This document shows positions 5,732 to 58,422 of a stretch of 64,000 bases of DNA, one piece after another. Within the stretch, counting starts at the first letter, position 1. Each line of letters starts with the position of its first letter. The DNA is from Actinobacteria bacterium RBG_16_68_21 (GTDB lineage Bacteria > Actinomycetota > Acidimicrobiia > Spongiisociales > UBA11373). The stretch is taken from NCBI GenBank assembly GCA_001767695.1, contig MELR01000011.1:192-64191 (forward strand), written 5' to 3'. The translations under genes were made by a program, and so were the position numbers. Below the pieces are notes generated by a model that made no database searches, had not been told where the DNA came from, and saw only the letters and a program-made list of their open reading frames with translations.

Positions 5732-5732
5732 C

Positions 5733-27796: not shown

Positions 27797-28945
27797 TCAG
27801 AAGCTCGCGACTCGCCGTCGATACGCGACGACGGCTTGAGTGAAGTCGTCGACGGTGTCGCCACCGAACTTGCGGGCCAACTCGTCGGCGAGAACGAATG
27901 CAACCATCTGCTCGGCCACAACGCCGGCGGCGGGAACCGCGCAGACGTCGGACCGCTCCCGGAAGGCTTCTGCCGGCTCCTTGGTGATGACATCGACCGT
28001 GCCCAGCGGTCGCATCAGGGTCGACAGCGGCTTCATGGCCGCTCGCAGCCGCAGGGTCTGACCGGTGGTCATCCCCCCCTCCAGGCCGCCGGCGCGATCG
28101 GTTGGGCGGCTGAATCCGGCTTCGTCGTGGCGGATCTCGTCGTGGGCCGCCGACCCGAGCCGGGCCGCCGACCTCAGGCCGTCTCCGACCTCCACCGCCT
28201 TGATCGCCGGGATCGACATGAGGGCGCCGGCCAGTAACCCGTCGAGACGTCGATCCCAGTGGACGTGGCTCCCGACGCCGGGAGGCAGCCCGAAGGCGAG
28301 TACCTCGACCACTCCCCCCAACGTGTCGCGCTCGGATTGTGCTCGATCGATGGCGGCGATCATGTCCGTCTCCGCCGTCGGGTCGAAAGTTCGCACCGGC
28401 GAGGCGTCGATCGTCGCCAGGTCATCCGGCCCCGGCACGAGTTCCTTGGCGGCGACGCCCCCGATGGCGACGACGTGGCTGATCACCGTCACCCCTGCCG
28501 TCGCCAATAGGCCCTTGGCGAGGTACCCGACAACGGTGCGCGCCGCGGTCTCCCGCGCCGATGAGCGCTCGAGTATGTCCCGGGCATCATGGGTATCCGT
28601 CTTGATCATCCCGGAGAGATCGGCGTGACCGGGGCGCGGTGTGGTCAGTGGCCTGCGGGCGGAGCCGGGAGCGGTGCTCATCTCCTCCTCCCACTTCGGC
28701 CATTCGGTGTTCCTGATCACCACTGCCACCGGACCGCCGAGCGTCCGGCTGAAGCGCACCCCGCCGAGGATCTCCAGGTCGTCCTGTTCGATGAGCATCC
28801 TCCGGCCCCGGCCGTGACCGAGCCGGCGCCGCCGCAGTTCCGCGGCGATGCCGTCGATGTCCACGACGAGCCCCGCCGGCAAGCCCTCGACGACGGCCAC
28901 CAGTCCCGGGCCGTGGGATTCACCTGCGGTGAGGAAGCGAAGCAT
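27797..28945 (-). CDS. aroC: chorismate synthase
   Basis: MLRFLTAGESHGPGLVAVVEG..., GHGRGRRMLIEQDD, conserved FMN-binding motifs; 382 aa. Confidence 0.93.
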   Translation of the reverse strand: MLRFLTAGESHGPGLVAVVEGLPAGLVVDIDGIAAELRRRRLGHGRGRRMLIEQDDLEILGGVRFSRTLGGPVAVVIRNTEWPKWEEEMSTAPGSARRPLTTPRPGHADLSGMIKTDTHDARDILERSSARETAARTVVGYLAKGLLATAGVTVISHVVAIGGVAAKELVPGPDDLATIDASPVRTFDPTAETDMIAAIDRAQSERDTLGGVVEVLAFGLPPGVGSHVHWDRRLDGLLAGALMSIPAIKAVEVGDGLRSAARLGSAAHDEIRHDEAGFSRPTDRAGGLEGGMTTGQTLRLRAAMKPLSTLMRPLGTVDVITKEPAEAFRERSDVCAVPAAGVVAEQMVAFVLADELARKFGGDTVDDFTQAVVAYRRRVASF

Positions 28946-29000: not shown

Positions 29001-29025
29001 GGCAATTGGCAATTGGCAATCGGCA
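29001..29025. repeat. Heptamer tandem repeat (locus B): (GGCAATT)2-GGCAATC-GGCA
   Basis: ggcaattggcaattggcaatcggca, between PilP-like gene stop (29090) and aroC start (28945). Confidence 0.8.
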
Positions 29026-29089: not shown

Positions 29090-29710
29090 CTATTTGAGGA
29101 TGCTCTGGCCGACCGCCAGGGTGAAGGCGCTCGAGCCGTAGGTGAACACGCCTCCGTTGTCGGTGAGGCTGACCACCTTGAAGTTGGTGGCGAAGGTGTC
29201 CCCTACCCCCACCGTGTAGGTCTGGCCATCGACCTCGACGACCGCCACCTTGCCACCGGCCTCGTCCCGCACCTCGAGCAACATCACCCTGATGCCGTCG
29301 GGGGTGTCGCCGCTCGTCGTCGTCGTGACACCCCCGGTCGTCGTGGTGGTGTCCCCACCCGTCGTCGTGGTGGTCTCCCCTCCGGCCGCGGTGGTCGTGG
29401 TCTCGCCACCGGCCACGGTGGTCGTCGTCTCCCCACCGGCCCCCGTCGTCGTCGTTTCCTCGGTGGGAGTGGTCACCAGGGGCTGGAAGGGATCGCGCGG
29501 CTGGGCGACCTGGTAGTCCCCGGTGAGCCCGATCGGGGCCCCCTGGGCTGCCGAGGTGTCCACCGCCCCGCTGTCCGGTGCGCCGGGGAGCGCGCTCTCG
29601 GCTCCCGTAAAGACCCCGGCCGACGCCATCAGCCATACCGACGCCACCGCGGTGCCCACGAGCAGCAGTGAAACGAATACCGACACCAGGGTTCGCTTGG
29701 CTCCGATCAT
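29090..29710 (-). CDS. type IV pilus assembly protein, PilP-like, with Thr-rich (GGETTTT)n linker
   Basis: From ATG at about 29710 (MIGAKRTLVSVFVSLLLVG, TM anchor); four-fold GGETTTTxA repeat; C-terminal beta-rich domain (GIRVMLLEVRDEAGGKVAVVEVDGQTYTVGVGDTF...); last gene of the pilM-pilN-pilO block. Confidence 0.55.
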   Translation of the reverse strand: MIGAKRTLVSVFVSLLLVGTAVASVWLMASAGVFTGAESALPGAPDSGAVDTSAAQGAPIGLTGDYQVAQPRDPFQPLVTTPTEETTTTGAGGETTTTVAGGETTTTAAGGETTTTTGGDTTTTTGGVTTTTSGDTPDGIRVMLLEVRDEAGGKVAVVEVDGQTYTVGVGDTFATNFKVVSLTDNGGVFTYGSSAFTLAVGQSILK

Positions 29711-29711
29711 C

Positions 29712-30350
29712 TCATGAGCCTCCCCGGTTCGCCTCGAACGACGAGTCCGTCGTCGGACCGGTCGTGGTCGTCGTGTCGCCTCCCAGCTCGCCGGCATCGA
29801 CGGTCGGCAGCAGGTCCGCCGTGGTGAAGAGCCGCATCTGGATGGTGGCCGCCAGAAGGGTGTTCCCCTCCTCGTCCTGGGTCGAGGACAACGACACTCC
29901 GTCGACCCGGACCAGGCGCTCCATGTCGTTCAGGCCGAAGAGGAACCCGAGCAGCTCGAAGAACTCCCCTTCCACCTGCGCACTGATGTCGATCCGGCGC
30001 AGCTCGGTGCCGTCCTCGGTAGGTGCGGGAACGGATGGCGACAGGGTCTGCAGGACCACTCCGGTCTCCTCGGCGAGGGAGTAGATCTGCTCGATGGCCT
30101 GATCGAGCAGCGGGCGGTCGGGGATGAGCGCGTTGAGCTTCCCCAGCGCCGCCTCGTACTCCACCCCGCGATCCCGGATCTCCTGGAGCTGTTGGATCTG
30201 CGCTCGCAGGCTGCCCTCGGTATCGACTGCGGCGCTCAACTCCCGGTGGGCGTCGTCGATCTTGGCGTTGCGCGGCGAGATCAACAAGAACCACCAGGCA
30301 GCCGTCACCGCCAGCGCGGCCAGCACGACGATCAGTCCCACGCGGCGCAT
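29712..30350 (-). CDS. pilO: type IV pilus assembly protein PilO
   Basis: 212 aa from ATG at 30350 (MRRVGLIVVLAALAVTAAWWFLLISPRNAKIDDAHRELSAAVDTEGSLRAQIQQLQ: TM plus coiled coil) then PilO-like periplasmic domain; TGATG junction with pilN. Confidence 0.7.
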   Translation of the reverse strand: MRRVGLIVVLAALAVTAAWWFLLISPRNAKIDDAHRELSAAVDTEGSLRAQIQQLQEIRDRGVEYEAALGKLNALIPDRPLLDQAIEQIYSLAEETGVVLQTLSPSVPAPTEDGTELRRIDISAQVEGEFFELLGFLFGLNDMERLVRVDGVSLSSTQDEEGNTLLAATIQMRLFTTADLLPTVDAGELGGDTTTTTGPTTDSSFEANRGGS

Positions 30351-30964
30351 CACGGCACCTCCGGAATGAGGGTGTCGGCGCGATTGGTGGTCGCCCCGCT
30401 GGTGAGCGCCGCCGTCGACGAGAAGGTCACCACATCCGTGTCGCCGATCGCCCCCTGGGACACCGTGCTCACCCAGGGGCCGGTCACGCCGCTGAATTGC
30501 CCGGAATCCAGCGCCCGCAGCCACTCCGAGACGTCGGGGTAGTCGAACCCGACGCCGCTGAAGGCCACCTGGCCCAGGACCCCGGGGATCGATGCGGAAG
30601 CGACGGTTCCCGAGAAGGTCTCCATCCAGACCCGTTGCGGCAGCAGCCTCGCCAGGTCGTTGAGGAAGATGCCCCAATCCACGTCTGAGGCGAGTGCCGC
30701 CCGAACCAGGTCCGCCTTTCCGTCGTACTCGATCTTCACCTCGTTGGCCGACGACAAGGTCGCCACGTCCCCTTCCAGCGACTGGTTGATGGCGGTCTGG
30801 GCATCCACGTCGGACTGTGCGGCCGCCACCTTGCCGTTCCAGTAGAAGACACCCACCACCAGCAGTGCCACATATACGCAGGCGGCGAACACACCAGCCC
30901 CGACGCGCCGTCGTCGGCTCCTCTCCTGGCCGACCTCCGGTGGCAGGAGATTGATTGGTCTCAT
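30350..30964 (-). CDS. pilN: type IV pilus assembly protein PilN
   Basis: MRPINLLPPEV (the INLLP signature of PilN), TM segment, periplasmic domain. Confidence 0.75.
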   Translation of the reverse strand: MRPINLLPPEVGQERSRRRRVGAGVFAACVYVALLVVGVFYWNGKVAAAQSDVDAQTAINQSLEGDVATLSSANEVKIEYDGKADLVRAALASDVDWGIFLNDLARLLPQRVWMETFSGTVASASIPGVLGQVAFSGVGFDYPDVSEWLRALDSGQFSGVTGPWVSTVSQGAIGDTDVVTFSSTAALTSGATTNRADTLIPEVP

Positions 30965-30973
30965 GACGGCGTC

Positions 30974-32077
30974 CTAGGCGACATGGGCGAATCGATTCGT
31001 CGGCGGAACGACGTACGAGCCCCACAGTCCCAGTCCGACCGCCGCCGGCAGGACCGGCTGGTACTCGAGCAACTGGCTTTCGGTCATCTGCACCCTGCCG
31101 ACGGTGACGTGGTCCAACACCCGGACCGGTTCGACCCGGGTGTTGAGCGAACGGCCAATGCGATTCGCCAGGTGCGGGAGGCGGGCGCCGTTTCCGGACA
31201 CGACGAGGCGGCCGAGAGCGTGCTCCCCGGCCTGGGTGAGGTAGTAGTTGACCGAGCCCCTGATCTCCTCGATCAAGGCGTCCCCGGTGCGGGTCAGGAT
31301 CCGGCGGGCGATCATCTCGGAGTCCTCGCCCTCGGGGAAACCCTGGGGAGCGACCCCCACCCGCCGTTTCAGCTCCTCGGCGTCTTCACGAGACAGCGAC
31401 ATCCCCGTCATCAGCGTCTCCGTGAAGTGCTCCCCGCCCGTGGGGATGATGCGCACGAATCGGGTGATCCCGCCGCGAACGATGGCGATCTGAGAGATGG
31501 ATGCCCCGATGTCGAGCAGCGCCTGGGGCCCGTCACCCCCGAGGAGGAGGTCCGCGCCAAAGGCGGCCCGTACCAATCCGAAGGCCTGCAGGTCGATGGA
31601 GAGGACGCTCAGGCCGGCACCGTCGGCGATCCTCACCAGACCGTCGACCATGTCACGCTGCGCCGCCACCACCAGGATCGAGAGCATCAGGTCCCCTTCC
31701 GGGGTGGTGAACTCCTCGAGAGGCACGAAGTCGAGCACGGCGTCGTCCACGGGAATGGGGATGGCGTCTTGGACCTGGAAGGGAAGCGCGTCGACGAGCT
31801 CGGATTCCTCCAGGTGGGGTACGTCCACCTGCCGGACGATCACCCGCTGGTTGGCCAGGCCGACCACGACCCGCTTCCGGGGCAGGTGGTGCCGCTTCCA
31901 CAGCGCAGCAACCGCCTCGGTGACCGCCCCCTCGTCGGCGACGTCGCCTGCCTCGACGACCCCGGGCGGAAGCGGCATCTCGGCGAACCGCCGCAGCACG
32001 GGCGCGCCCTTGCCGGCCTCGACGACGGCGGCGCGCACGGCATCAGAGCCAATGTCGAGACCTATCGCGACCGGCAT
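30974..32077 (-). CDS. pilM: type IV pilus assembly ATPase-fold protein PilM
   Basis: Actin-like fold: MPVAIGLDIGSDAVRAAVVE..., ...VVVGLANQRVIVRQVDVP..., LSVLSIDLQAFGLVRA; internal ATG at about 32077 has a better RBS (GCGAGG) than the GTG at 32131. Confidence 0.8.
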   Translation of the reverse strand: MPVAIGLDIGSDAVRAAVVEAGKGAPVLRRFAEMPLPPGVVEAGDVADEGAVTEAVAALWKRHHLPRKRVVVGLANQRVIVRQVDVPHLEESELVDALPFQVQDAIPIPVDDAVLDFVPLEEFTTPEGDLMLSILVVAAQRDMVDGLVRIADGAGLSVLSIDLQAFGLVRAAFGADLLLGGDGPQALLDIGASISQIAIVRGGITRFVRIIPTGGEHFTETLMTGMSLSREDAEELKRRVGVAPQGFPEGEDSEMIARRILTRTGDALIEEIRGSVNYYLTQAGEHALGRLVVSGNGARLPHLANRIGRSLNTRVEPVRVLDHVTVGRVQMTESQLLEYQPVLPAAVGLGLWGSYVVPPTNRFAHVA

Positions 32078-32244
32078 GTCGTGCCTCGCGAGCGGGTCAC
32101 TGGCGCCATATGACGCTCCTGTTCTACTCACAGACGAGTAGTTACGCCTGTGTCATCACGAGGCTACACAGGGCATCGCGCCGGACCAAGGATTCTGAAC
32201 GCGCCGCGCCACCGGATCGCGCGCTTTGCGCGGTGAGGCTTCCC

Positions 32245-33024
32245 TCAGCCCAGATACCACGAGGCGATCGCCTCGCCGGCAGCGATCGCCACCCAGGCCC
32301 CCACCACCAGGGCCGGCCCGAAAGGGATCGTGTCACGGCGACCGGCGCGGCGAGTCGCCATCAGCACGATCGCCGACAGACCGCCGAGCACGAAGGCGGC
32401 GAACACCGCCACCGCCAGTGAGCCCCACGAGCGGTAGGCGGCGAAGACGCCGAGGAGGAAGGCCAGTTTCACGTCGCCCATCCCGAAGCCTCCGCGGGCG
32501 ACCAGGGCGATCACCAGGAGCCCTCCGAAGTAGGCGGCGCCGCCGGCGAGCGCCTGACCCAGTCGCCCGCTCGTTCCCTCGAGGAGCGCTCCTGTGGAGA
32601 GCAAGACCACCGCAACCGCGGTGCCCGGGTAGAGGATCAGATTGGGCAGCCGCTTTTCATCGAGGTCGACGACCGCGAGCACGAGCGTGACCGCGGCGAA
32701 CCAGAGGTAGGCGGGGAGCACCCAGGAGAGGCCGATGACGGCTGCCGTGATCCCGAAGAGCGCTCCCGAGGCCGCCTCCACCAGCGGGTACCTGACCGAG
32801 ATCGGTTGGCCACACGCCCGGCAGCGGCCCCGCAACAACACCCAGGAGAGCACCGGGATGTTGTCGACCGCACGGATCTCGGCGCGGCAGTTGGGGCAGG
32901 CGGATGGCGGCCTCACGATCGAGATGCCCGCCGGGACGCGGTAGGCCACCACGTTGAGGAAACTCCCGATCAACACCCCAGCGAAGGCGGCGACGGCGAC
33001 GGTCACCAATCCCTTCCCGTGCAC
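32245..33024 (-). CDS. pilD: prepilin peptidase (A24 family) PilD
   Basis: N-terminal Cys-x-x-Cys...Cys-x-x-Cys zinc motif (PSACPNCRAEI...RGRCRACGQPI) and polytopic membrane domain with peptidase A24 Asp motifs (GGFGMGDVKLAFL). Confidence 0.88.
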   Translation of the reverse strand: MHGKGLVTVAVAAFAGVLIGSFLNVVAYRVPAGISIVRPPSACPNCRAEIRAVDNIPVLSWVLLRGRCRACGQPISVRYPLVEAASGALFGITAAVIGLSWVLPAYLWFAAVTLVLAVVDLDEKRLPNLILYPGTAVAVVLLSTGALLEGTSGRLGQALAGGAAYFGGLLVIALVARGGFGMGDVKLAFLLGVFAAYRSWGSLAVAVFAAFVLGGLSAIVLMATRRAGRRDTIPFGPALVVGAWVAIAAGEAIASWYLG

Positions 33025-33446
33025 ACTGCGAGTGTCATCTCTGCCTCGGTCTCTTCCCTACAGGTGAAGTGGCCCCGAGCCCCTCCCGCCACGGCGAGGC
33101 GGGCGCCGAACCAGGTTCCGCTGCGGGAGCGAGCGTACAGCAGCACCTGAGCGGAGTCTCCCGGCTTGACGTCGGCGACGACCACCCGCACCGAGGTATC
33201 CGCAGATCCGAGGTCGATGCCGGGGGCGATTTCGGTCAGCCGGCCGGCGTCGGTGCTGAACGCACCATCGGCGACCATGAGGCCCATCTCGGCGGTGGCG
33301 GCGTGGCTGAGACTCGACGTGGCCCGGGCGTCGTTGGCCCGCGACCGGAAGCCCTCGAGGATCGCCACGAGGATCGCAACGATGGCGAGGACGACCGCCA
33401 GCTCCACCAGCGTGTAACCGCCGTCGTGATTCCGGGGCATGGTCAC
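33003..33446 (-). CDS. type IV pilin (second pilin gene)
   Basis: Class III signal: MTMPRNHDGG|YTLVELAVVLAIVAIL (G-1, E+5); 147 aa; RBS GAGGAG just after the upstream hairpin. Confidence 0.8.
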   Translation of the reverse strand: MTMPRNHDGGYTLVELAVVLAIVAILVAILEGFRSRANDARATSSLSHAATAEMGLMVADGAFSTDAGRLTEIAPGIDLGSADTSVRVVVADVKPGDSAQVLLYARSRSGTWFGARLAVAGGARGHFTCREETEAEMTLAVCTGRDW

Positions 33447-33457
33447 TCCTCATGTGA

Positions 33458-33489
33458 GAAGGGGGCGGGTCTTACGATCCGCCCCCTTC
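33458..33489 (-). terminator. GC-rich stem-loop between pilA and the second pilin gene (partial terminator/attenuator)
   Basis: GAAGGGGGCGG-(10 nt loop)-CCGCCCCCUUC, 11-bp perfect stem, 24 nt after pilA stop and followed at once by the RBS/ATG of the next pilin gene. Confidence 0.55.
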
Positions 33490-33512
33490 CCGATTGGTGA
33501 TCGACCGTGGAC

Positions 33513-33974
33513 TTACCAGCCGCCCTGGGCGTAGGCCCCAGGAGCAGCGTCGGGACAGGTGACGCTGAGGTCAGTGGCTCCGTACCACGTTCCAAGTGTC
33601 GAGCTCTCCCAGATGGCGAACGTGTTGCCGGAAGCGGCGGTCCGGGTCAGGCACACGGTGTCCGAGGTGGTGGCGTTCAACTGCAGCGCCACACCGCTCG
33701 CCGGGTTGGCGTTGATCACCGCGTTCGGTTCGAATGCCGTGATGTCCGCGGCGGTCTCGGTGTAGTCGCCGTTGTCCAGCCAGTACGCCTTCTCGGAGAG
33801 AAGGACGTTGCGGATATCGCTCTGGGCAGAACGATCCTGCGCCGACTTGCGGAACCCGAGGAACGAGGGGATGGCAATGGCGATGAGAACTGCAATGATC
33901 ATCACCACGACCATCAGCTCGATGAGCGTGAACCCTTCGTCGCCCTTAAGGCCACGTCGGATGGTCTTCATCAT
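33513..33974 (-). CDS. pilA: type IVa major pilin PilA
   Basis: 153 aa from ATG ATG at 33974 with GGAGG RBS: MMKTIRRGLKGDEG|FTLIELMVVVMIIAVLIAIAIPSF, canonical prepilin leader/N-methyl-Phe/E5 N-terminus; C-terminal Cys pair (C..C). Confidence 0.88.
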   Translation of the reverse strand: MMKTIRRGLKGDEGFTLIELMVVVMIIAVLIAIAIPSFLGFRKSAQDRSAQSDIRNVLLSEKAYWLDNGDYTETAADITAFEPNAVINANPASGVALQLNATTSDTVCLTRTAASGNTFAIWESSTLGTWYGATDLSVTCPDAAPGAYAQGGW

Positions 33975-34104
33975 TGTTCGAGAACCTCCTAGTGGTTTCT
34001 CTCGCGTGGGACGCAAAGTGCGACCCGTCGTGGTTATCGGCTTGAAGCCGCAGGGGCCTTGAGGGCTATTTCGCGATCTGGTCCGCGGCCGAAAGCTGAA
34101 CACT

Positions 34105-34153
34105 GACCTTCGACCTTGGACCTTGGACCTTGGACCTTGGACCTTGGACCTTG
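34105..34153. repeat. Heptamer tandem repeat (locus C, part 1): ACCTTCG + (ACCTTGG)6; on the pilA-coding strand (CCAAGGT)6
   Basis: accttcgaccttggaccttggaccttggaccttggaccttggaccttgg, perfect 7-nt period, about 130-180 nt upstream of the pilA start. Confidence 0.9.
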
Positions 34154-34200
34154 GAGAGACGTTCGCGAACGGTCCGGAGTCCCGAGGCGCATCGCCCGAC

Positions 34201-34248
34201 AGCGGGAGAGCGGCCAGCGGAAAGCGGGCAGCCGGCAGCGGGCAGCGA
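34201..34248. repeat. Heptamer-periodic array (locus C, part 2): AGCGGGA GAGCGGC CAGCGGA AAGCGGG CAGCCGG CAGCGGG CAGCGAC
   Basis: Seven in-register degenerate heptamers (consensus cAGCGGG) abutting the pilC stop codon (34249). Confidence 0.75.
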
Positions 34249-35475
34249 CTAGTTGTTGATCAGGTTGGCGATGTTGAACATCGGCAGGTAGAGGGAGATG
34301 AGGATCCCGCCGACGGCGACGCCCATCACGATGATCAAGATCGGTTCGATCAACGAGGTGAGCGCGTTCACGGTGTCATCGACCTCGTTGTCGTAGAAGT
34401 CGGCCACCTTGGCCAGCATGGCATCGAGGGCGCCGGTCTCCTCCCCGACGGCCATCATGTGGGTGACCATGGGCGGGAAGACCTCGTGCCGCCCGAGTGG
34501 TCCGGCGAGTGACTCGCCCCGGCGGACTGACGCCTGGACGTCGGTCACCGCCCGGCTGACCAGGGCATTGCCCGAGGTCTGCGCCACGATGTCCAGCGCC
34601 TGCAGCACCGGTACGCCGGTCCGGCTCAGCACCGAGAAGGTCCTGGCGAACCGGCTGATCGCCACCTTCTGCACCAGAGAGCCGAAGACGGGGGCCCTCA
34701 ACTTGAGGGTGTCCCATCGCAGCTTCCCGGTGTCGGTTCGCTTCCAGCGCCGGAAGACGATCACTCCCCCGAGCAGTGACCCGAGCACGACCCACCAGAA
34801 CTTGGTGATGGCGCCCGAGATGTTGATCAGTGCCTGGGTGGGGAGAGGCAGGGTCCCCCCGAGGTCCTCGTACATCTTCTGGAAGATGGGGACGACGAAC
34901 AGCAACATCCCGGAGACGATGCACACGATCAGCACCAGCACCACCACCGGGTAGGCCATCGCCGACTTCACCTTCGACCGTAGCCGAACACCGGCTTCGA
35001 GCGTGTCGGCCAGCCGCACCAGAGTCTCGTCGAGCGCCCCGCCCACCTCCCCGGCGCGCACCATCGACACGTACAGATGGTTGAACACGTCGGGATGCTG
35101 CTCGAGGGCCGCGGAAAGGCTGTTCCCCTGCTCGACGTTGGTGCGAACCTCGCCGATGATGCCCGCCAACGCCGGGTTCTCGTTCTGTTCCTCGAGGATG
35201 GCCAGCGCCCGGATCAGGGTGAGGCCGGAGTTGACCATCGTTGCCAGCTGCCGGCTGAAGATGGCGACTTCCTTGAGCTTCACCTTCTTCTTGAATCCTG
35301 GGATCGTGATCTCTCTGTCGAGACCGGACACCCGCTTGGCGTCGACGCGCAGAGCCGTATAGCCCTTCTCGCGCAATGCTCCGGCGACCGATGCCGGCGA
35401 GGAGCCCTCCATCGACCCGCTGTGGACGTTGCCGGATCGATCGCGCGCCTTGTACTCGTAGATTGCGGTGCTCAT
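34249..35475 (-). CDS. pilC: type IV pilus inner-membrane platform protein PilC
   Basis: 408 aa; MSTAIYEYKARDRSGNVHSGSMEG..., two GspF/PilC repeats with three TM segments. Confidence 0.88.
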   Translation of the reverse strand: MSTAIYEYKARDRSGNVHSGSMEGSSPASVAGALREKGYTALRVDAKRVSGLDREITIPGFKKKVKLKEVAIFSRQLATMVNSGLTLIRALAILEEQNENPALAGIIGEVRTNVEQGNSLSAALEQHPDVFNHLYVSMVRAGEVGGALDETLVRLADTLEAGVRLRSKVKSAMAYPVVVLVLIVCIVSGMLLFVVPIFQKMYEDLGGTLPLPTQALINISGAITKFWWVVLGSLLGGVIVFRRWKRTDTGKLRWDTLKLRAPVFGSLVQKVAISRFARTFSVLSRTGVPVLQALDIVAQTSGNALVSRAVTDVQASVRRGESLAGPLGRHEVFPPMVTHMMAVGEETGALDAMLAKVADFYDNEVDDTVNALTSLIEPILIIVMGVAVGGILISLYLPMFNIANLINN

Positions 35476-37091
35476 CGCCCCTGACCTCCCAGAAGGTTCG
35501 TCAGCTCTTCGACGTTCTGCGCCCGTTCCATGGCGAGGCGAACATCGATCCTGCCGGAGCGCACGAGTCCTGCCAGGGACTTGTCCATCGTCTGCATGCC
35601 GTGGCGTCCCCCCGACTGGATCGTGCTGCGGATCTGGTGGACCTTGCCTTCGCGGATCAGGTTGCGAACGGCAGGGATCGCCACCATCACCTCGACGGCG
35701 GCCGCCCGCCCCTGGCCGTCGACGGTGGGCAGCAACTGCTGAGTCAGCACACCCTGGAGGGACTCGGCCAGTTGGACCCGCACCTGCTGCTGCTGGTGGG
35801 GAGGAAAGACGTCGATGATCCGCTCAATGGCCCCGGGGGCATCCTGGGTGTGCAGAGTGGCGAAGACCAGGTGTCCCGTCTCTGCGGCAGTCAGGGTGGT
35901 CGCCATCGTCTCCAGGTCCCGCATCTCGCCGACCAGAATCACATCGGGATCCTGGCGGAGGGCATGCCGCAACGCCGTGGAGAACGCGCTCGTGTCGGCA
36001 CCCACCTCGCGTTGGTTGACGATCGAGCTCTTGTGTCTGTGCATGAATTCGATCGGGTCTTCGATCGTCATGACGTGGACCGCCCGGTGAGTGTTGATCT
36101 CGTCCACCAACGAGGCCAGGGTCGTCGACTTGCCGGTACCGGTGGCTCCGGTGACGAGCACGAGACCTCGCGGCAGGTAGGCGAAATCGCGAACCACCGC
36201 CGGCATTCCGAGTTCGGCGAGCGACTGGACTTCATTGGGGATGGCTCGCATCACCGCGCCGACTGCTCCCCTCTGAAAGAACACATTGACACGGAACCTT
36301 CCCGCGCCGGGAAGAGGATGTGAACAATCCAGTTCGAGGTTGTTCTCGAGCTCCTCGCGTTGACGCGCCGAGAGGATCGCGTAGACGAGACCTCGCAGCG
36401 GCCCCGGCATCAGCGTGTCGTAGCCCTCGATGGGGAGCAGGGCCCCGTGCACCCGCATCAGCGGCGGCAAGCCGGCGCTCAGATGGAGATCGGAGCCGTG
36501 GGCTTCGAGCAGGATCTTCAGCAGCTCGTTGATGTGATACCCCGATTCGCCGACGGCCTCCGCAGGGCGGGAAGACGGCACAGGGGGTCCGTCGAGAACC
36601 GCGTGGAGCTGCTTGGTCCCCGGGGTGGGCACCGCAGTCCCCCGAGCGCTCGAGTAGGTGCGGCGCACGACGTCGTCGAGTGAGTCACGCGGAGCGAGGG
36701 CCACCGAGATCTCCCCACCTGCCGCCGCGGCGACGCGACGGCGCCGTTCGACGTCCAGGGGGTCGGCCATCGCCACGACCAGGTTCCTCGACTCCATGCG
36801 CAGTGGAAGGACGACCTCGGCGACGGCCACCGCCGGATCCAATCGGGAGAGCACGCCGGGATCGGGAGCGGCGCCCAGAACGGGATCGTAGAACTCGACG
36901 CCGATCCCTTCGGCGATCACACGGAGGACATCGGCGCGATGCATCGCCCCGGTCTGCAGCAGCTCTGTGATGGGATCGGTACCTCGGCTGCCGGCGAGTT
37001 GCTCGGCTTCGGCAAGGGCGTCGGTGGGCAGCAGGTGCCCATCGACGAGGCGTTGACCGATCTGGCGGATCAGCTGATCGATGGGCATCAG
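35472..37091 (-). CDS. PilT-like retraction-type ATPase with N-terminal GspE_N/MshEN-like extension
   Basis: C-terminal about 350 aa is PilT-type (Walker A GATGTGKST, Asp box, Walker B DVILVGEMRD, His box ATLHT); N-terminal about 190 aa (MPIDQLIRQIGQRLVDGHLLPTDALAEAEQ...LRMESRNLVVAMADPLD) looks like the T2SS-E N-terminal domain; ATG at about 37088 overlaps pilB stop. Confidence 0.75.
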   Translation of the reverse strand: MMPIDQLIRQIGQRLVDGHLLPTDALAEAEQLAGSRGTDPITELLQTGAMHRADVLRVIAEGIGVEFYDPVLGAAPDPGVLSRLDPAVAVAEVVLPLRMESRNLVVAMADPLDVERRRRVAAAAGGEISVALAPRDSLDDVVRRTYSSARGTAVPTPGTKQLHAVLDGPPVPSSRPAEAVGESGYHINELLKILLEAHGSDLHLSAGLPPLMRVHGALLPIEGYDTLMPGPLRGLVYAILSARQREELENNLELDCSHPLPGAGRFRVNVFFQRGAVGAVMRAIPNEVQSLAELGMPAVVRDFAYLPRGLVLVTGATGTGKSTTLASLVDEINTHRAVHVMTIEDPIEFMHRHKSSIVNQREVGADTSAFSTALRHALRQDPDVILVGEMRDLETMATTLTAAETGHLVFATLHTQDAPGAIERIIDVFPPHQQQQVRVQLAESLQGVLTQQLLPTVDGQGRAAAVEVMVAIPAVRNLIREGKVHQIRSTIQSGGRHGMQTMDKSLAGLVRSGRIDVRLAMERAQNVEELTNLLGGQGR

Positions 37092-38776
37092 ACCACCACC
37101 CTGAGAATCTCCTCGAGCGTCGTGAGCCCCAGCCTGACCTTCTCCATGCCGTCCTGGCGAAGGGTCTTCATGCCTTGGCTCACCGCAACCCGCTTGATCT
37201 CGTCTGAGGGTCGGTGCTCGACGATCATCCGCTGCATCTCCTCGCTTACCAGCAGGGTCTCGTTCACCGCGAGCCGTCCCCGGTAGCCGGTGCTCGTGCA
37301 CGCCTTGCATCCGACCGCCCGGTAGATCGTCATCGGGCCATCATCGGGATCGAAACCCATTTGCTGGACGATCTCGGGGGACGCGATCCGGGCCTCCCTG
37401 CAGCGATCGCAGATCTTGCGCGCCAGACGCTGGGCGAGGACGGAGTCGAGGGCCGACGACACCAGGTAGGGCTCTACGCCCATGTCGATCAGTCGCCCGA
37501 ATGCGGAGGACGAGTCGTTGGTGTGCAGCGTGCTCAGCACCAGGTGCCCGGTCAGTGCAGCCTCGACGGCGATCTTGGCCGTCTCGGTGTCACGCACCTC
37601 GCCGATGAGCACGATGTCGGGGTCCGAGCGGAGAATCGCCTTGAGGACCGTTGCGAACTGGAGTCCCGCCTTGCGGTTCACCTGCACCTGGGTGACACCC
37701 TTGAGGCGATACTCGACCGGATCCTCGACGGTGATGATGTTCTTGTCGGGTGAATTGAGGATGTTGAGTGCCGAGTACAGCGTGGTCGTCTTGCCGGATC
37801 CGGTCGGGCCGGTGACCAGGATCGCCCCGTACGGCTTGCTGTACGACTGCTCGAATCGGGCAAGGGCGGAGGGGAGGAATCCGAGCTGAGCGAGGTCGAG
37901 GACCGCGTCCTCCTTGTCGAGGATCCGCAGCACGACCTTCTCACCGTAGATGTTGGGGAGGGTGGCCACCCGAAGGTCGATCTGCCGGCCCGACACCCGC
38001 AGGCTCACGCGCCCATCCTGTGGCACCCGGCGCTCGGCGATGTCGAGATCCGCCATGATCTTGAGCCTGCTGACGACCGCTCCGGACACCGATCGCGGTG
38101 TACTCATGATCTCGTGGAGCACGCCGTCGATCCGGAACCGCACCCGCAGGTCGCGTTCGCCGGGTTCGACGTGAAGGTCGGAGGCCCGCTCGTTGACGGC
38201 GCGGCTGATCAGCGTGTTCACCAGCTTGACGATTGGGGCCTCCTCGACCGCCAACTCGATGTTGCTCAGATCCTCCTGGGCAATGTCCCCGCCCACGAGG
38301 TCCGCCAGGTCGGCCACCGAGTCGTCGTAACGGCCCTGGCGACGGATGGCATCATCGATGTCCCCCCGGGTGGCGATCTTGGGGATGATGCGCAGTCCGG
38401 TGATGGCCCGGATGTCGTCGATGACGAGCACGTTGGCCGGATCCGCCATCGCCACCACGAGCGCGTCATCATCGAACTTGACTGGAATGACGCCGTAGCG
38501 CCGCGCCAGCGACTCGGGAATCAGAGCGGCCGCGCCGGGGTCGATCGTGGTCTCATTGAGGTTGATGAACTCGACCCCGCTGTGCGTGGCGATCGCCTGG
38601 ACCAGGTCGAGTTCCTTGACCATGCCTTCCGCGACGAGGATGCGAGTCAGCGTCTCCCCGGTCTCTGCCTGGCGGGCGCGAGCGCGCGCCATATCTCCCG
38701 TCGACACCAGACCGGAATCTTCGAGGACCGTGCCGATGTGATCGCGCTCTGACACCCGAACTCCCGTGCGGAACAC
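37088..38776 (-). CDS. pilB: type IV pilus assembly (extension) ATPase PilB
   Basis: 562 aa; GspE_N-type N-domain (VVAMADPANVLVIDDI), Walker A GPTGSGKTTTLYS, Asp/His boxes, tetracysteine motif (CDRC...CKAC). Confidence 0.88.
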   Translation of the reverse strand: MFRTGVRVSERDHIGTVLEDSGLVSTGDMARARARQAETGETLTRILVAEGMVKELDLVQAIATHSGVEFINLNETTIDPGAAALIPESLARRYGVIPVKFDDDALVVAMADPANVLVIDDIRAITGLRIIPKIATRGDIDDAIRRQGRYDDSVADLADLVGGDIAQEDLSNIELAVEEAPIVKLVNTLISRAVNERASDLHVEPGERDLRVRFRIDGVLHEIMSTPRSVSGAVVSRLKIMADLDIAERRVPQDGRVSLRVSGRQIDLRVATLPNIYGEKVVLRILDKEDAVLDLAQLGFLPSALARFEQSYSKPYGAILVTGPTGSGKTTTLYSALNILNSPDKNIITVEDPVEYRLKGVTQVQVNRKAGLQFATVLKAILRSDPDIVLIGEVRDTETAKIAVEAALTGHLVLSTLHTNDSSSAFGRLIDMGVEPYLVSSALDSVLAQRLARKICDRCREARIASPEIVQQMGFDPDDGPMTIYRAVGCKACTSTGYRGRLAVNETLLVSEEMQRMIVEHRPSDEIKRVAVSQGMKTLRQDGMEKVRLGLTTLEEILRVVV

Positions 38777-38910: not shown

Positions 38911-39675
38911 CTAGGCCCGGGCCGCCTCCCGCATGACCTCGACGGGTGCCTCCACGCCCGTCCAGATGCGGAACGATTCGGCCGCTTGAGCGACGAGCAG
39001 GTCTATGCCGTCGACGCAGTTGATCCCGAGACGACGGGCGGCGGCACATGCCGGCGTGGCCTCCGCGGCGTAGGGCAGGTCGATCAGCCCGCCGGCGGCG
39101 GCGAGGACGGCCTCGGGGAGCCGCTCCCCGCGCATTCCGATCGGGGTCGCGTTGACGACCAAGGCCCCGGGCACGGCCATGCCCCAGGCCACCGCCCGGG
39201 CCGAGGGACACAGTTGTCGGGCATGACGGGCGGCGGCATCGGGGCGGCGGGCGGCGACCCACACGCGGTCAGCGGAGAACGCGACCAGCGCCGCCGCCGC
39301 CGCTCCCCCGGCGCCGAGCACCAGCACCGTTCTCTCCCCGGGCCTTCCGGTGGCGACCGAGCGGAGGGCGGCCACGTCGGTGTTCCATCCGCAGAGCTCT
39401 CCATCCCGGATCGCCAGGGTGTTGGTCGCCCGCCCGGCGGCGGCATCCGCATCGAGTCGGTCGCACAGCCGTGCCGCCAGACGCTTGTGGGGCATGGTGA
39501 CGTTCGCCCCGTCGAGTGCCCCGGAACGGAGTTCTCCGACGGCGTCGGCGACACCGCCGGCGTCGACCCGGCGAGCCAGGTACTCCCCGGCGATGCCGAG
39601 ATGGGCGAGAGCCGCGGAATGAATCGCCGGAGAACGGGAGTGGGCGACGGGGTTGCCGAGCAACACCAGTCTCAT
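38911..39675 (-). CDS. aroE: shikimate dehydrogenase
   Basis: GNPVAHSRSP, NVTMPHK, NT(D) and GAGGAA Rossmann motif. Confidence 0.88.
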   Translation of the reverse strand: MRLVLLGNPVAHSRSPAIHSAALAHLGIAGEYLARRVDAGGVADAVGELRSGALDGANVTMPHKRLAARLCDRLDADAAAGRATNTLAIRDGELCGWNTDVAALRSVATGRPGERTVLVLGAGGAAAAALVAFSADRVWVAARRPDAAARHARQLCPSARAVAWGMAVPGALVVNATPIGMRGERLPEAVLAAAGGLIDLPYAAEATPACAAARRLGINCVDGIDLLVAQAAESFRIWTGVEAPVEVMREAARA

Positions 39676-43906: not shown

Positions 43907-44053
43907 CGATGAGCGATGGGAGATGGGCGTGACGCGATTAGCAGCTGGCGATTAGCGATGCGCAATTGGCAATTAGCCGCCTGCCCGGCGCGACTCTTGC
44001 GGGTTGCGGGCAGCGGGCAGCGGGTTGCGGGTTGCGGGCAGCGGGCAGCGGGT
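43907..44053. repeat. 147-bp array of about 21 in-register degenerate heptamers (locus D): GCGATGG GAGATGG GCGTGAC GCGATTA GCAGCTG GCGATTA GCGATGC GCAATTG GCAATTA ... (TTGCGGG/CAGCGGG)8
   Basis: Strict 7-nt register across the whole alaS-rarA spacer; ends 2 nt before the rarA stop codon. Confidence 0.85.
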
Positions 44054-49103: not shown

Positions 49104-50495
49104 TCAGAGCTCGAGCCAGCTCCTCGGCATGAGCACGTACTCCGGTGCCGCCAGGTCCGTGGCGAGGGGGCCGTGGTTGTTGACCGTCGCCCCGCCGCCC
49201 ACGTAGGACCCCTGTACCGGACTCCCGGGCGTGTCGCAGTGATCTGGATAGCCGCCCTGGGCCAGGAACGAGCCATCTTCGACATCGAGATCGCCGGTGA
49301 TCTCGATCTGTTCGTGGGCTGCCGCCAGCCCGGTGAAGTCGGCATTGCCGCTGATATCGATGTCTCGCCCCGCCAACAGCTGGAGCTTCCCGGTGGTGTT
49401 GTACGGCTTCATCACCGGGTGTCCCGAAATGATGATGTCGCCTCCCTGGAGCGCGCCGCACGAGGAGCCGAGCGACTCGACGAAGATCGACACCTCCCAG
49501 GGCAGCAGGGCGGCACCCGGGCTCGACACGACGGTGGCGATGCCCTGGTATACGTAGAACACCCCGTCGTTGGCGTTCGTCGATTCGTACTTCCAGCTCG
49601 CCCAGTTGGACGCGTCGCAACACCCCATGAACTTCCACCCCATGTAGGCGCTCGTCGCGGCAGAGGACGTCAGGGCCGCCCCCGTACACGGCACGTTGGT
49701 GGCGGTGTTCCCGTACGTCGGGTTCGCCGGTCCTGCCCGCACCTTGCCATCCGGGCACAGGTCGTACTGGCTCTTGAGCCAATGAGCGCGGGGGTCAACC
49801 TCGGGGATGATGACGATCGGTTGATCTCCAGGAGGAGGGCACTCGGGCGGTTGGACAAAACTCCCCGTGACCTTGGAGCCTCCCGATGCCGATACACACC
49901 CGTCCGAGGAGGTGCTCCCACCGACGTCGAGGAAGCCGTTGGTGTGGATCCCCACACCGGCGCCGGTGAGGAATGTCGGATTCCCCCGGAACTCCAGATG
50001 GTCGCCGGCGAGGAACGCCAGGCGGGTGGTCCAGGAGGTCGATTGCAGCAGCACCTCGAAGCGAGCCCGCACCACTCGCACCCGCCGGTCGTCCGCATCC
50101 CGGGACGGGGCGTAACCGACCGCAAACACGTACGGGTAGTCGACCGGCTTGATCACGACAAACTCGCCGTCGGAGGTGCGGACGACGTCGCCGGAGGGGC
50201 GGGCGTCGGCGGCGGCCGTCGCCCACGCCTTCTCCTCGGTGGAGCCGATGAGGTCCTCGCGCAGGCTCTCCCCGGTCGTGTACGCCCCGTCGGCCTCGAC
50301 TGTGGCGAGACCGAGATTGAGTCCTGACTCCGCGGCCGCCAGGGCTTGCTCCCACAGGGCGTCGTCGTTCGTGTTGCCGTACTGGTCGAGTCCGCGGGCG
50401 AACACGACGGCCAACACGAGCAGGAGTGCGGTGCTCAGCATGACCACCGTGATCATGGCCAACCCCGACTCGTCGAAGAGACGAAACCGCTTCAT
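49104..50495 (-). CDS. large prepilin-like pilus-associated protein (pseudopilin N-terminus, about 463 aa)
   Basis: From ATG at 50495: MKRFRLFDESG|LAMITVVMLSTALLLVLAVVF (prepilin-like hydrophobic N-terminus without E5), then large Cys-containing domain; first of five co-oriented prepilin-like genes ending at 53837. Confidence 0.55.
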   Translation of the reverse strand: MKRFRLFDESGLAMITVVMLSTALLLVLAVVFARGLDQYGNTNDDALWEQALAAAESGLNLGLATVEADGAYTTGESLREDLIGSTEEKAWATAAADARPSGDVVRTSDGEFVVIKPVDYPYVFAVGYAPSRDADDRRVRVVRARFEVLLQSTSWTTRLAFLAGDHLEFRGNPTFLTGAGVGIHTNGFLDVGGSTSSDGCVSASGGSKVTGSFVQPPECPPPGDQPIVIIPEVDPRAHWLKSQYDLCPDGKVRAGPANPTYGNTATNVPCTGAALTSSAATSAYMGWKFMGCCDASNWASWKYESTNANDGVFYVYQGIATVVSSPGAALLPWEVSIFVESLGSSCGALQGGDIIISGHPVMKPYNTTGKLQLLAGRDIDISGNADFTGLAAAHEQIEITGDLDVEDGSFLAQGGYPDHCDTPGSPVQGSYVGGGATVNNHGPLATDLAAPEYVLMPRSWLEL

Positions 50496-51013
50496 CCGGC
50501 ATTCCTCACGCTGACGCCGACCGTGAGGGTGCGCTGTGACGGCTCCCCCGTGCGCGCCGTCACCGAGGCGACCAGGGTCACCTCGATCTGGGTCACCGCG
50601 GCCGCCGGGGATGCATCGTAAGTGAACCGGCTCTGGTACACATCCAGGTTGGACGCCTCGATGTGCGGCGCGGTGAGATCGGTGCACTTGGTCAGGCTGC
50701 CGTTCTCGATGCGCCAGGTGACCGCCTCCCCCGGGTCCTGGTACTCGTCCTCGTCGGCATCCACCCACACCGAGACCTGGGAGGGCTCTGCCACCAGAAC
50801 CGAACGGGCGACCCGCAGGTCGCGGGTGATGTGCTCCTTGGCGACGCGGAGATCCTGGACAGCTTGATCGTCTTCCCGGTGGAGCCCTGCGGCTTTGCTG
50901 GCCGACGAGATCCAGGTGATGAGCGTGATGCTCATCAGCGAGGTGATGAGCAGGGTCATCGCGAGCTCGACCAGGGACATTCCCGAGTCGGCGGAAAGGC
51001 GCCGCCGAATCAT
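50492..51013 (-). CDS. minor pilin / pseudopilin
   Basis: MIRRRLSADSG|MSLVELAMTLLITSLMSITL (G-1, E+5 prepilin signature); 173 aa. Confidence 0.75.
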   Translation of the reverse strand: MIRRRLSADSGMSLVELAMTLLITSLMSITLITWISSASKAAGLHREDDQAVQDLRVAKEHITRDLRVARSVLVAEPSQVSVWVDADEDEYQDPGEAVTWRIENGSLTKCTDLTAPHIEASNLDVYQSRFTYDASPAAAVTQIEVTLVASVTARTGEPSQRTLTVGVSVRNAG

Positions 51014-51549
51014 CGCGTTCCCGCCTCGGAGATGAGGGTGGAGGTCCGGTGGCTCGCGGCGTCAGCGCCCCCATCCCACTCGACGAGCACGAGCACCCGT
51101 CGCAGCCCCTGAGACGCGTCCGTGACATACCGCCAGATGGAGTAGATGACCCCGTCGACGGTTTGAATCTCAGTGGGGCCAAGGAGCCCGCCAACCGGAT
51201 CGACGATCAGGTCTTCGTCCCGATCGAGCCCCGCCTCCCCACCGACGAGGACACCGCGATCGGGGTCGATGAGGGGCGCATCGTGAACCATGGACGACAT
51301 GGCGATGTGATCGAAGTCCAGAGATCGGGCGAACTCGAGCTGTTCCACACCTATTGCGGTCGCCTCCTGGGCGGCGGCGTTGTCCTTCGAGCCCAGGTAG
51401 GCGACGCCGAGCCCCTTCCCGAAGCCTGCGAACACGAGCACCACTATGAAAGAGGCGACGACGGCTTCGATCAGCGAAAACCCGTCGGTCGCTCCAAGCA
51501 TCCCCAACAACCCGTGACTAGTTCGCGGTCTCATACACTCAGTAGTCAT
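51010..51549 (-). CDS. minor pilin / pseudopilin
   Basis: ...GLLGMLGATDG|FSLIEAVVASFIVVLVFAG (prepilin signature with E+5). Confidence 0.75.
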   Translation of the reverse strand: MTTECMRPRTSHGLLGMLGATDGFSLIEAVVASFIVVLVFAGFGKGLGVAYLGSKDNAAAQEATAIGVEQLEFARSLDFDHIAMSSMVHDAPLIDPDRGVLVGGEAGLDRDEDLIVDPVGGLLGPTEIQTVDGVIYSIWRYVTDASQGLRRVLVLVEWDGGADAASHRTSTLISEAGTR

Positions 51550-51586
51550 ATCGACCGCACTCCGCTGTTTCTTGAGCGGGGGAGGG

Positions 51587-58333: not shown

Positions 58334-58422
58334 AGCATTTAGCAATTGGCGATTGGCGATTGGCGATCAGCGATTAGCGGCCAGCACGACTGTGCCTTGC
58401 CGGTGACGGGCGACGGGTGACG
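58334..58422. repeat. Heptamer-periodic array (locus E): AGCATTT AGCAATT (GGCGATT)2 GGCGATC AGCGATT AGCGGCC ... CGGTGAC GGGCGAC GGGTGAC GG
   Basis: In-register 7-nt periodicity across the secF-apt spacer; ends 6 nt before the secF stop codon. Confidence 0.8.

Follow-up and report, generated by a model that had tools for sequence, protein, structure and literature searches.

A probably native, secretin-less type IVa pilus locus in the shikimate-gene neighborhood of an uncultured Acidimicrobiia bacterium

Here we analyze a type IVa pilus (T4aP) locus in a 64-kb stretch of DNA, termed the window, with a GC content of about 68%, from one uncultured Acidimicrobiia (Actinomycetota) bacterium. Ten tightly packed minus-strand open reading frames (ORFs) at positions 29090-38776, between aroE and aroC, most probably (we estimate roughly 85%) encode the complete T4aP machine of a monoderm bacterium, inherited vertically within its chromosomal neighborhood. 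Every T4aP component that was tested for is present except the secretin PilQ, which monoderm systems lack. An earlier sequence-only reading had proposed an extension ATPase, a PilT-type ATPase, a platform protein, a prepilin peptidase, PilMNO and pilins flanked by aroE and aroC; all of these are identified, intact, in this interval, and the gene tables of the window bear out both flanks. The genes, assigned by Pfam and NCBIfam searches with the cut-offs of these collections, and their two neighbors are as follows (aa, amino acids).

38911-39675, minus strand: aroE, flanking the pil block on the pilB side
37088-38776, minus strand: pilB, extension ATPase, 555-562 aa depending on the choice of GTG start, with MshEN and T2SSE domains
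35472-37088, minus strand: PilT-family retraction ATPase, 538 aa, matching TIGR01420 and carrying an N-terminal MshEN domain; its start overlaps the pilB stop
34249-35475, minus strand: pilC, platform protein, 408 aa, matching T2SSF (231 bits) in two stretches
33513-33974, minus strand: pilA1, probable major prepilin, 153 aa (N_methyl 31 bits; TIGR02532 31 bits)
33003-33446, minus strand: pilA2, second prepilin, 145-149 aa (N_methyl 29 bits; TIGR02532 25 bits); its 3' end overlaps the pilD start
32245-33024, minus strand: pilD, prepilin peptidase/N-methyltransferase, 253-259 aa (A24_N_bact 117 bits; Peptidase_A24 49 bits)
30974-32077, minus strand: pilM, actin-like cytoplasmic assembly protein, 367 aa (PilM_2 139 bits; TIGR01175 190 bits, cut-off 133)
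30350-30964, minus strand: pilN, 204 aa (PilN 27.8 bits, cut-off 22.8)
29712-30350, minus strand: pilO, 212 aa (PilO 39 bits, cut-off 22; T2SSM_b 25.7 bits); frame set by third-position GC, start overlapping the pilN stop
29090-29710, minus strand: orf10, PilP-like by fold and position, 206 aa, outside the curated families
27797-28945, minus strand: aroC, flanking the pil block on the orf10 side

The gene calls are consistent across approaches, as all ten ORFs show a third-codon-position GC content (GC3) of 0.80-0.90 in the expected frame and the public gene call on an identical contig sequence (ENA ERZ27256843 k141_1718054) yields the same ten genes, with a pilB product of 555 aa. Overlapping stop and start codons link pilB to pilT, pilT to pilC, pilN to pilO and pilO to orf10, which fits co-translation in operons. 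A sigma-70 promoter scan returned nothing and the count of intrinsic terminators was at chance level, so operon boundaries cannot be defined in that way. The closest homologues of the window proteins come from metagenome-assembled genomes (MAGs) of Acidimicrobiia or other Actinomycetota.

PilB scores 474 bits against PF00437 and 80 bits against PF05157 (MshEN), and it combines an N-terminal MshEN/GSPII domain with a GPTGSGKT Walker A box and a C-terminal CxxC...CxxC tetracysteine motif. The PilT homologue scores 476 bits against TIGR01420 (cut-off 319) over residues 186-527, its translation contains a Walker A box and the PilT signature AVRNLIRE, and residues 185-535 match solved PilT structures (5zfq at E 6.5e-116, and also 6ojx, 2ewv and 3jvu). 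These solved hexamer subunits, of 356-390 residues, all lack an N-terminal extension, whereas the window protein carries an additional MshEN domain (Pfam, 51 bits, residues 75-150), and its residues 9-180 align to PilB-type chains only. The N-terminal region is kept in 41 of 48 related loci, and the PilT homologue of a distant Actinomycetota contig (542 aa) likewise combines MshEN with T2SSE. MshEN/GSPII is a domain that binds cyclic di-GMP (c-di-GMP) and is known from the extension ATPases MshE, PilB and Thermus PilF (PMC11731258); both window ATPases share it at their N termini, and they differ from those systems in that it is here also fused to a PilT core. Canonical binding is judged by two tandem 24-residue motifs, (R/K/L)LGxx(L/V/I)(L/V/I)xxG(L/V/I)(L/V/I)...L...L..Q, spaced 5 residues apart (PMC11731258). 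By manual comparison these motifs are degenerate in PilB and in PilT, with the first Arg missing and several Leu/Gly positions altered; PilB retains about half of the key positions and PilT a smaller share. Against the NCBIfam c-di-GMP motif, PilB reaches 32.6 bits (cut-off 38) and PilT has no match. For neither MshEN domain do the motifs support binding of c-di-GMP in the canonical way, and binding by either ATPase is doubtful.

PilC is one undivided platform protein, unlike that of Tad systems, and contains two T2SSF repeats; among NCBIfam models it scores best against those for PilC of Thermus and Myxococcus (433 and 426 bits), with ComGB at just 152 bits. The translation of PilD contains the CxxC...CxxC array of the N-terminal domain and the GMGDVK motif. 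PilM, PilN and PilO each exceed the Pfam gathering score, and PilM has 1808 homologues at E <= 0.001 among 8000 candidates scored. PilN begins with MRPINLLP, followed by one transmembrane helix; we take its INLLP to be the conserved PilM-binding peptide. Escherichia coli HofN matches the pilN ORF (E 0.005 in the window and 5e-6 in the related locus L082), and HofM matches pilM. With respect to the pilins, the sequence-only reading had claimed two canonical GFTLIE N termini. Two prepilins are indeed present, but only PilA1 carries this motif: it has a 14-residue leader, the cleavage site G|FTLIELMVV with Glu at +5, and two C-terminal Cys, while PilA2 is cleaved at G|YTLVELAVV. The class III signal-peptide pattern (G-1, F/Y/M+1, E+5) is shown by both of them and by four further prepilin-like proteins described below. 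A pilA1 gene, in one to three copies, is seen in every scanned locus of the 80-locus set that spans its position; pilA2 is detected by tblastn in a minority of related loci, which indicates that the number and sequence of the extra pilins vary.

The placement of the locus was compared across relatives found by a PilM-alignment scan of one genome per species (GTDB), of which the best 80 of at least 107 matching stretches were used and annotated with the window's own proteins. These 80 loci, with PilM identities of 49-95%, read as Acidimicrobiia MAGs, three of them being labelled as other phyla and probably mis-binned. With few exceptions, and wherever the contig covers the region, they share the order alaS-ruvX-mltG-aroE-pilB-pilT-pilC-pilA(1-3)-pilD-pilM-pilN-pilO-orf10-aroC-aroK-aroB-(pepQ)-efp-nusB, with the flanks arranged as in the gene tables of the window (alaS-ruvX-mltG-aroE ... 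aroC-aroK-aroB-pepQ-efp-nusB). The gene after orf10 is aroC in 59 of 63 loci, the exceptions being three with efp or pepQ after orf10 and one with aroC directly after pilO, in which orf10 was undetected; aroE stands ahead of pilB in 33 of 36, and mltG takes its place in the other three. Further afield, two distant Actinomycetota contigs (L086 and L087) carry pilM-pilN-pilO-orf10-aroC-aroK/aroB-aroQ-pepQ-efp-nusB-pyrR-pyrB-pyrC, with pilB, pilT (including its MshEN domain), pilC and pilins upstream, and the orf10-family members that they carry, about 30% identical to the window protein, belong to other Actinomycetota lineages. The mean identity of five Pil proteins rises and falls with the mean for the housekeeping proteins on either side (Spearman 0.81, p = 8e-10, n = 38), at similar averages of 64% and 61%. 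In synonymous codon usage and in GC3, each of the ten genes falls within 2 standard deviations (SD) of 30 other window genes. The linkage extends outside the phylum: a co-oriented series hofM-N-O-P-Q-aroK-aroB is found in E. coli K-12, and aroK and aroB are reported to flank pilMNOPQ throughout the Proteobacteria (PMC7545093). In sum, synteny, co-divergence, composition and the Proteobacterial pil-aro linkage indicate that the association of pil with shikimate genes is old and that the locus is native.

Two variations on this arrangement were observed. In L054, L068, L069, L071 and L079, aroC-aroK-aroB or aroE is missing and the pil cluster still lies between mltG and efp; in these loci it is the aro side of the partnership that is mobile, and not the pil side. 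Both distant contigs have a small HTH_17 (excisionase/MerR-like) gene directly before pilM (L086 7461-7664; L087 7459-7659), whereas the window has no such gene and a pilD-pilM spacer of 167 bp.

The tenth gene, orf10, lies directly after pilO in related loci (but for the one with aroC there) and had been called PilP-like in the sequence-only reading. The protein consists of an N-terminal predicted transmembrane helix, the sequence QPRDPFxPL, a Thr/Gly-rich repeat linker and, at the C terminus, a beta domain some 65 residues long, and it contains no lipobox and no Cys at all. Its homologues (286 proteins in 90% clusters at E <= 0.001; 930 representatives at 50% identity for the family profile) share an almost invariant (R/K)(D/N)PFxPL, a linker of variable length and a C terminus of the form ...G(Q/E)xILK. 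The AlphaFold model exceeds a pLDDT of 95 over residues 138-206, and in a Foldseek search of the PDB the top 13 matches of this C-terminal domain are all PilP, HR domains of GspC/LspC, or GspB, with no unrelated fold among them. They include PilP (2lc4, 3jc8_Pa, 2y4y, 2y4x, 2ivw and 4av2_M), GspC/LspC (3oss_C and 7oio) and GspB (4wfw), while the PulC HR domain (6hcg_e) follows at rank 20; target TM-scores reach 0.78, with root-mean-square deviations of 1.9-3.9 A over 61-75 columns. No Pfam or NCBIfam family matches orf10 above threshold. Weak Pfam matches occur within its family (PilP in 6 of 63 members, best E 3e-3; T2SSB in 8 of 63) and none in the window protein itself, and its profile finds insignificant matches only among PDB sequences (Myxococcus xanthus PilP at E 0.52). 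Hits to Amino_oxidase, NAD_binding_8, Cupin and New_glue were rejected, all being sub-threshold and either short or of low complexity, New_glue reflecting the Thr-rich linker. The earlier label therefore holds for fold and not for membership of a curated sequence family: on modeled fold and position, "PilP-like" appears a fair description, as opposed to membership of Pfam PilP (PF04351). It is probable that orf10 binds PilN/PilO, by way of its invariant RDPF region.

Two hallmarks of PilP, the lipid anchor and the secretin partner, are missing from the orf10 system in the window and in related loci. Neither the window nor any of 84 related loci yielded a secretin in a tblastn search with E. 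coli HofQ (best E 2.8), and PF00263 (Secretin) is absent from the Pfam gene tables available for about 50 kb of the window; the lack of a PilQ secretin noted in the sequence-only reading is thus borne out on this wider scope. In diderms pilQ follows pilP almost without exception (PMC7545093), and the gap between orf10 and aroC in related loci has a median of 70 bp. Absence of a secretin is expected of monoderm T4aP (PMC6668835, PMC10191384), and in the monoderm Streptococcus sanguinis PilP is absent too, which was deemed logical for monoderms (PMC6916266). PilP does, on the other hand, belong to the set of eight proteins that suffice for assembly in a synthetic system from Neisseria (PMC10191384), an observation with which the retention of a PilP-fold protein in a secretin-less system fits.

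This retained PilP-fold protein is the most interesting detail of the locus, and we tentatively put forward an explanation for it that we hold to be possible although less likely than its negation. The orf10 family may represent a secretin-independent PilP, derived from an ancestral pilMNOPQ-aro arrangement that in Actinomycetota lost pilQ alone. PilP would then have been kept, with a transmembrane helix as its new anchor, and would have gained a long Thr-rich spacer that is possibly glycosylated, with the HR domains forming a collar in the wall zone or stabilizing PilN/PilO for the crossing of a thick wall. If true, this would give PilP its own part in core assembly, at which the minimal-machine data from Neisseria had hinted, and would contradict the view of PilP as pointless in monoderms.

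The 274-bp spacer between pilC and pilA1 contains two further elements.

34034-34063, minus strand: sigma-28/FliA/WhiG-type promoter-like site, CTCAAG-N16-GCCGATAA, ending 59 nucleotides (nt) upstream of the pilA1 ATG
34105-34155: heptamer tandem repeat, GACCTTG on the plus strand, 7.3 copies (TRF, 97% matches)

The flagellar/WhiG consensus is TAAA / GCCGATAA (PMC8325347), and sites were judged by a -35 TAAA, a spacer of about 15-16 nt and a -10 GCCGATAA. The -10 element at pilA1 is an exact match, and CTCAAG-N16-GCCGATAA occurs in the window at this position only, against 0.09 occurrences expected. In 34 of 52 related loci, a (C)TCAA(G)-like box, spacer and xCCGATAx recur equally far from the start codon, and 1.14 Mb of loci contain 44 CCGATAA sites, of which about 21, by manual count, belong to the pilA1 spacer. 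In Rubrobacter, WhiG promoters inside the pil cluster have been confirmed by mapping of transcription starts, and RsiG, a c-di-GMP-dependent anti-sigma factor, is reported in three of four Acidimicrobiales (PMC8325347). WhiG-pil predictions for additional families appear in a 2026 preprint, which makes no mention of Acidimicrobiia (PMC12871210). The sequence points to a putative WhiG-type control of the major pilin gene, and the analogy suggests the same c-di-GMP-linked sigma control as in Rubrobacter. The window also holds a response-regulator-GGDEF gene (15635-16564, minus strand), and in L086 a GGDEF-EAL gene (5340-7268) is embedded in the pil cluster, as reported for Rubrobacter; this hints at c-di-GMP control.

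The heptamer array ends about 43 nt upstream of the -35-like element, and a contig from another sample (L002) has an identical spacer save for 40 extra bases of heptamer repeat. Among perfect arrays of at least 4 copies with periods of 4-12 nt, heptamers alone occur in the window and in the 1.14 Mb of related loci. Five further intergenic stretches of the window carry imperfect heptamer arrays (29001-29025, 34200-34247, 43999-44053, 58345-58379 and 63880-63899), and arrays are also found in the related loci L006, L016, L053 and L070, the unit differing from array to array. We therefore reject a pilin-specific switch and regard the repeat as a genome-wide feature.

About 10 kb from the core locus, six co-oriented genes (49104-55489, minus strand) are bordered on one side by a RelA/SpoT-like gene and on the other by a metallo-beta-lactamase-fold gene followed by hisS. 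None of the six is named by curated families.

53834-55489, minus strand: large prepilin-like protein, 551 aa, with G|FTIVE; candidate modular minor pilin or adhesin
53184-53837, minus strand: minor prepilin-like protein, 217 aa, with G|FSLVE (N_methyl 21.3 bits, cut-off 21.2; TIGR02532 19.1 bits, cut-off 16.3)
51587-53191, minus strand: candidate PilX-type or tip-associated protein, 534 aa, with the hydrophobic pilin-like N terminus GGFAMMAVVMGIG, lacking Glu at +5; assigned by N terminus and gene position only
51010-51549, minus strand: minor prepilin-like protein, 179 aa, with G|FSLIE in the translation (N_methyl 13.8 bits, E 0.044)
50492-51013, minus strand: minor prepilin-like protein, 173 aa, with G|MSLVE in the translation (N_methyl 11 bits; weak XpsH match)
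49104-50495, minus strand: candidate PilX-type protein, 463 aa, with the hydrophobic pilin-like N terminus SGLAMITVVMLS, lacking Glu at +5

One of the four prepilins in this cluster, the 217-aa protein, passes the N_methyl and TIGR02532 cut-offs. The 551-aa protein falls just under the former (20.4 bits, cut-off 21.2), with CarboxypepD_reg at 35.9 bits and weak PilV/HpsB/GspI-type matches; its CarboxypepD_reg-like beta domains and Thr-rich linker resemble the modular pilins described in monoderms. No significant Pfam or NCBIfam family was found for the 534-aa protein. The N terminus of the 463-aa protein resembles that of a 512-aa protein of L087 (E 4.5e-4), a distant relative in whose pil cluster this protein lies, together with a large prepilin-like protein and a 218-aa prepilin, between pilA and pilM. 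Since a comparable set stands inside the L087 pil cluster, we read the six window genes, with moderate confidence and by analogy, as the candidate minor-pilin and tip set of the same pilus, whose genes would then extend beyond 29090-38776.

Coding repeats of 24-27 nt at 29314-29459, 54325-54456 and 60636-60820 give rise to Thr/Gly-rich linkers in three exported proteins, namely orf10, the 551-aa prepilin and a 584-aa protein encoded at 59496-61250; the linkers may be glycosylated or wall-spanning spacers. Elsewhere in the window, an FMN riboswitch (108 bits, 15466-15586, minus strand) lies ahead of a riboflavin operon, and the window edge (1-172, minus strand) includes the first 162 positions of a 16S rRNA gene.

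The order alaS-ruvX-mltG-aroE ... aroC-aroK-aroB-pepQ-efp-nusB around the locus presumably resembles that of mycobacteria, and the sequence-only reading had proposed that the pil genes were acquired as a block inserted between aroE and aroC, breaking an ancestral order that mycobacteria kept. Such horizontal acquisition would also agree with the total GC of pilB, pilC and pilA1, which lies 1.5-2.4 SD below that of other window genes, and with the description of T4aP as polyphyletic with some transfer (PMC6668835). We nevertheless consider it very improbable. The aroE-pil-aroC arrangement recurs in essentially all related Acidimicrobiia loci that are long enough, and since the same placement is seen in the two distant Actinomycetota contigs, any insertion would have to predate the divergence of these lineages. 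Pil proteins diverge together with their flanks, the comparison of GC and codon usage with the flanking genes that the earlier reading had suggested gives native GC3 and synonymous codons, only the total GC of the three genes being lowish, and the gene tables show no integrase, tRNA or repeat boundary. The pil-aro linkage of E. coli and other Proteobacteria (PMC7545093) argues in the same direction. Vertical inheritance with the same placement in relatives, the outcome which that reading had itself set against an insertion, is what these loci point to, and the mycobacterial order without pil genes more likely reflects the loss of genes formerly present in the neighborhood. In mycobacteria or corynebacteria, what is left of a prepilin-peptidase gene may lie between aroE and aroC. 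A pilMNOWQ-aroC-aroK-aroB order is presumably present in Thermus and Deinococcus and is not counted as evidence here.

Two other explanations concern the nature of the machine and not its origin. Actinomycetota, including cultured Acidimicrobiia, are Gram-positive monoderms, which together with the absence of any HofQ-like sequence from the window and 84 loci makes an outer membrane or mycomembrane-like layer, served by a secretin encoded elsewhere with orf10 as its usual linker, the least probable of the alternatives considered here. The retention of a PilP/GspC-fold domain, which binds the secretin N0 domain in known systems (PMC6916266, PMC10191384), and the visibility of just 64 kb of the genome speak in its favor; yet aroC, at a median distance of 70 bp, takes the position after orf10 that the diderm pilP-pilQ rule (PMC7545093) reserves for pilQ, and orf10 has a transmembrane anchor and long Thr-rich spacer in place of a lipobox. 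It is somewhat more plausible, though still unlikely, that the locus serves mainly as a DNA-uptake (competence) system or a protein-export pseudopilus of the Com or type II secretion system (T2SS) kind rather than as a long adhesion or twitching pilus. PilA1 scores about equally against GspG and PilA, PilB scores almost as high against GspE (608 bits) as against PilB (624 bits), E. coli hofMNOPQ is annotated with DNA utilization, and T4aP serve DNA uptake in many species (PMC6370729). Monoderm Com systems, however, lack PilMNO and PilT, and a T2SS requires an outer membrane and a secretin (PMC10191384, PMC6668835), whereas the window encodes PilT, PilMNO, a T4aP-type PilC (in view of the low ComGB score) and a full minor-pilin set. 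Assignment to the Tad or Com class was rejected, given a single PilC, the presence of PilMNO and PilT, and full-size pilins. Because a retractile T4aP can also take up DNA, this alternative bears on the role of the pilus, not on the identity of the machine.

Several points weigh against reading the locus as a complete, native T4aP system. The pilus is known here from its genes, and its expression, assembly on the cell and retraction are putative. The best NCBIfam match of PilB, TIGR02538, lies below its equivalog cut-off of 675 bits, with the GspE score given above. Foldseek E-values for orf10 range from 6e-3 to 0.2, none being <= 1e-3, modest values that follow from the small size of the domain, and they stand beside the lack of a sequence family at threshold. 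The -35-like box at pilA1 is TCAA, not TAAA, 18 of 52 related loci do not have the promoter motif, and there is no sigma-28 gene in the 64-kb window. The minor-pilin cluster is tied to the pil system by motifs and the L087 analogy only. The secretin search covered 64 kb of the genome and the related loci, leaving room for a secretin elsewhere, and these loci, having been picked via PilM, show where the pil genes lie when present and not how frequently Acidimicrobiia lack them.

By analogy with T4aP systems that have been studied, the parts of the locus would work together as follows. PilD would cut the short leaders of PilA1, PilA2 and the four minor prepilins from the cluster 10 kb away, and a PilB hexamer docked on PilC and held by PilM-PilN-PilO would lift membrane pilins into the growing fiber, with minor pilins priming its growth. 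Exchange of PilB for the PilT-family ATPase would lead to retraction. The fiber would leave the cell without an outer membrane or secretin to cross, and orf10, a presumed membrane-anchored PilP relative, would hold its PilP/GspC-fold domain out in the wall zone on the Thr-rich spacer. The major pilin gene would be driven by its own sigma-28/WhiG-type promoter. The shikimate link represents old synteny, pilMNO[PQ]-aro[C]KB, rather than an insertion scar.

Type IVa pili had been called uncommon and little studied in such lineages. Experimental work is indeed sparse, but pil genes have already been reported in several Actinomycetota, and at least 107 matching stretches were found here. Genome surveys report T4aP genes in Actinobacteria (PMC6668835, PMC6916266), type IVa pili are described in Rubrobacter radiotolerans and R. 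xylanophilus (PMC8325347), zoospore pili are known from Actinoplanes missouriensis (Kimura 2019, as cited in PMC8325347 and PMC12871210), and T4aP genes are listed for the Acidimicrobiia order UBA5794 (PMC12008989). The records for Actinoplanes and Rubrobacter come from experiments or transcript mapping (PMC8325347), and that for UBA5794 from gene lists. As far as the literature cited describes them, Rubrobacter, Actinoplanes and UBA5794 have the same kind of secretin-less machine within the same phylum. Actinomycetota T4aP clusters also share the GCCGATAA -10 of a sigma-28/WhiG-type promoter before pil genes (PMC8325347), and c-di-GMP enzymes are linked to the pil cluster in Rubrobacter as in L086. 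The window differs in its -35-like TCAA; the comparison with these systems was made by kind of machine and promoter, not gene by gene.

Compared with diderm T4aP (Pseudomonas, Neisseria and Myxococcus) and E. coli hofMNOPQ, the window shares the core proteins, the pilM-N-O-P order and the downstream aroK-aroB (PMC7545093), and the HR domains of diderm PilP and GspC superpose on the C-terminal domain of orf10. It differs in lacking PilQ and a pilotin, in keeping the core genes as one block instead of scattered, in the MshEN domain added to PilT, in the presence of aroC between the pil genes and aroK, and in the anchoring of the PilP-like protein, which is by lipid in diderms and by a transmembrane helix followed by a long Thr/Gly-rich spacer in orf10. 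The T4aP of Firmicutes (S. sanguinis, Clostridium perfringens and C. difficile) are likewise secretin-less, with clustered pilB, pilT, pilC, pilD and pilMNO, more than one pilin and modular minor pilins (PMC6916266, PMC4832360). PilP is reported as absent from S. sanguinis, whereas a PilP-like gene is conserved in Acidimicrobiia loci, and long leaders are reported for Firmicute major pilins, in contrast to the short, 14-residue leader of PilA1 (PMC6916266). Relative to the literature cited, the secretin-less PilP-fold protein, the MshEN-PilT fusion and the conserved WhiG-type pilin promoter in Acidimicrobiia are mildly new, as is the use of the synteny between pilMNO(P) and aro to trace a precise loss of pilQ.

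For annotation, the locus is best read as a native, conserved T4aP system of Acidimicrobiia and not as a genomic island. Acidimicrobiia are abundant and almost uncultured in soils, sediments and waters, and the locus supplies them with a candidate machinery for surface attachment, twitching or DNA uptake. It also offers small but testable leads on the function and regulation of type IV pili that operate without an outer membrane, namely a PilP fold without a secretin, a PilT core joined to a PilB-type N-terminal domain, and a WhiG-type promoter beside a length-variable repeat. Finally, the pilMNO(P)-aro synteny common to Actinomycetota and Proteobacteria provides a marker for tracing the loss of the secretin.

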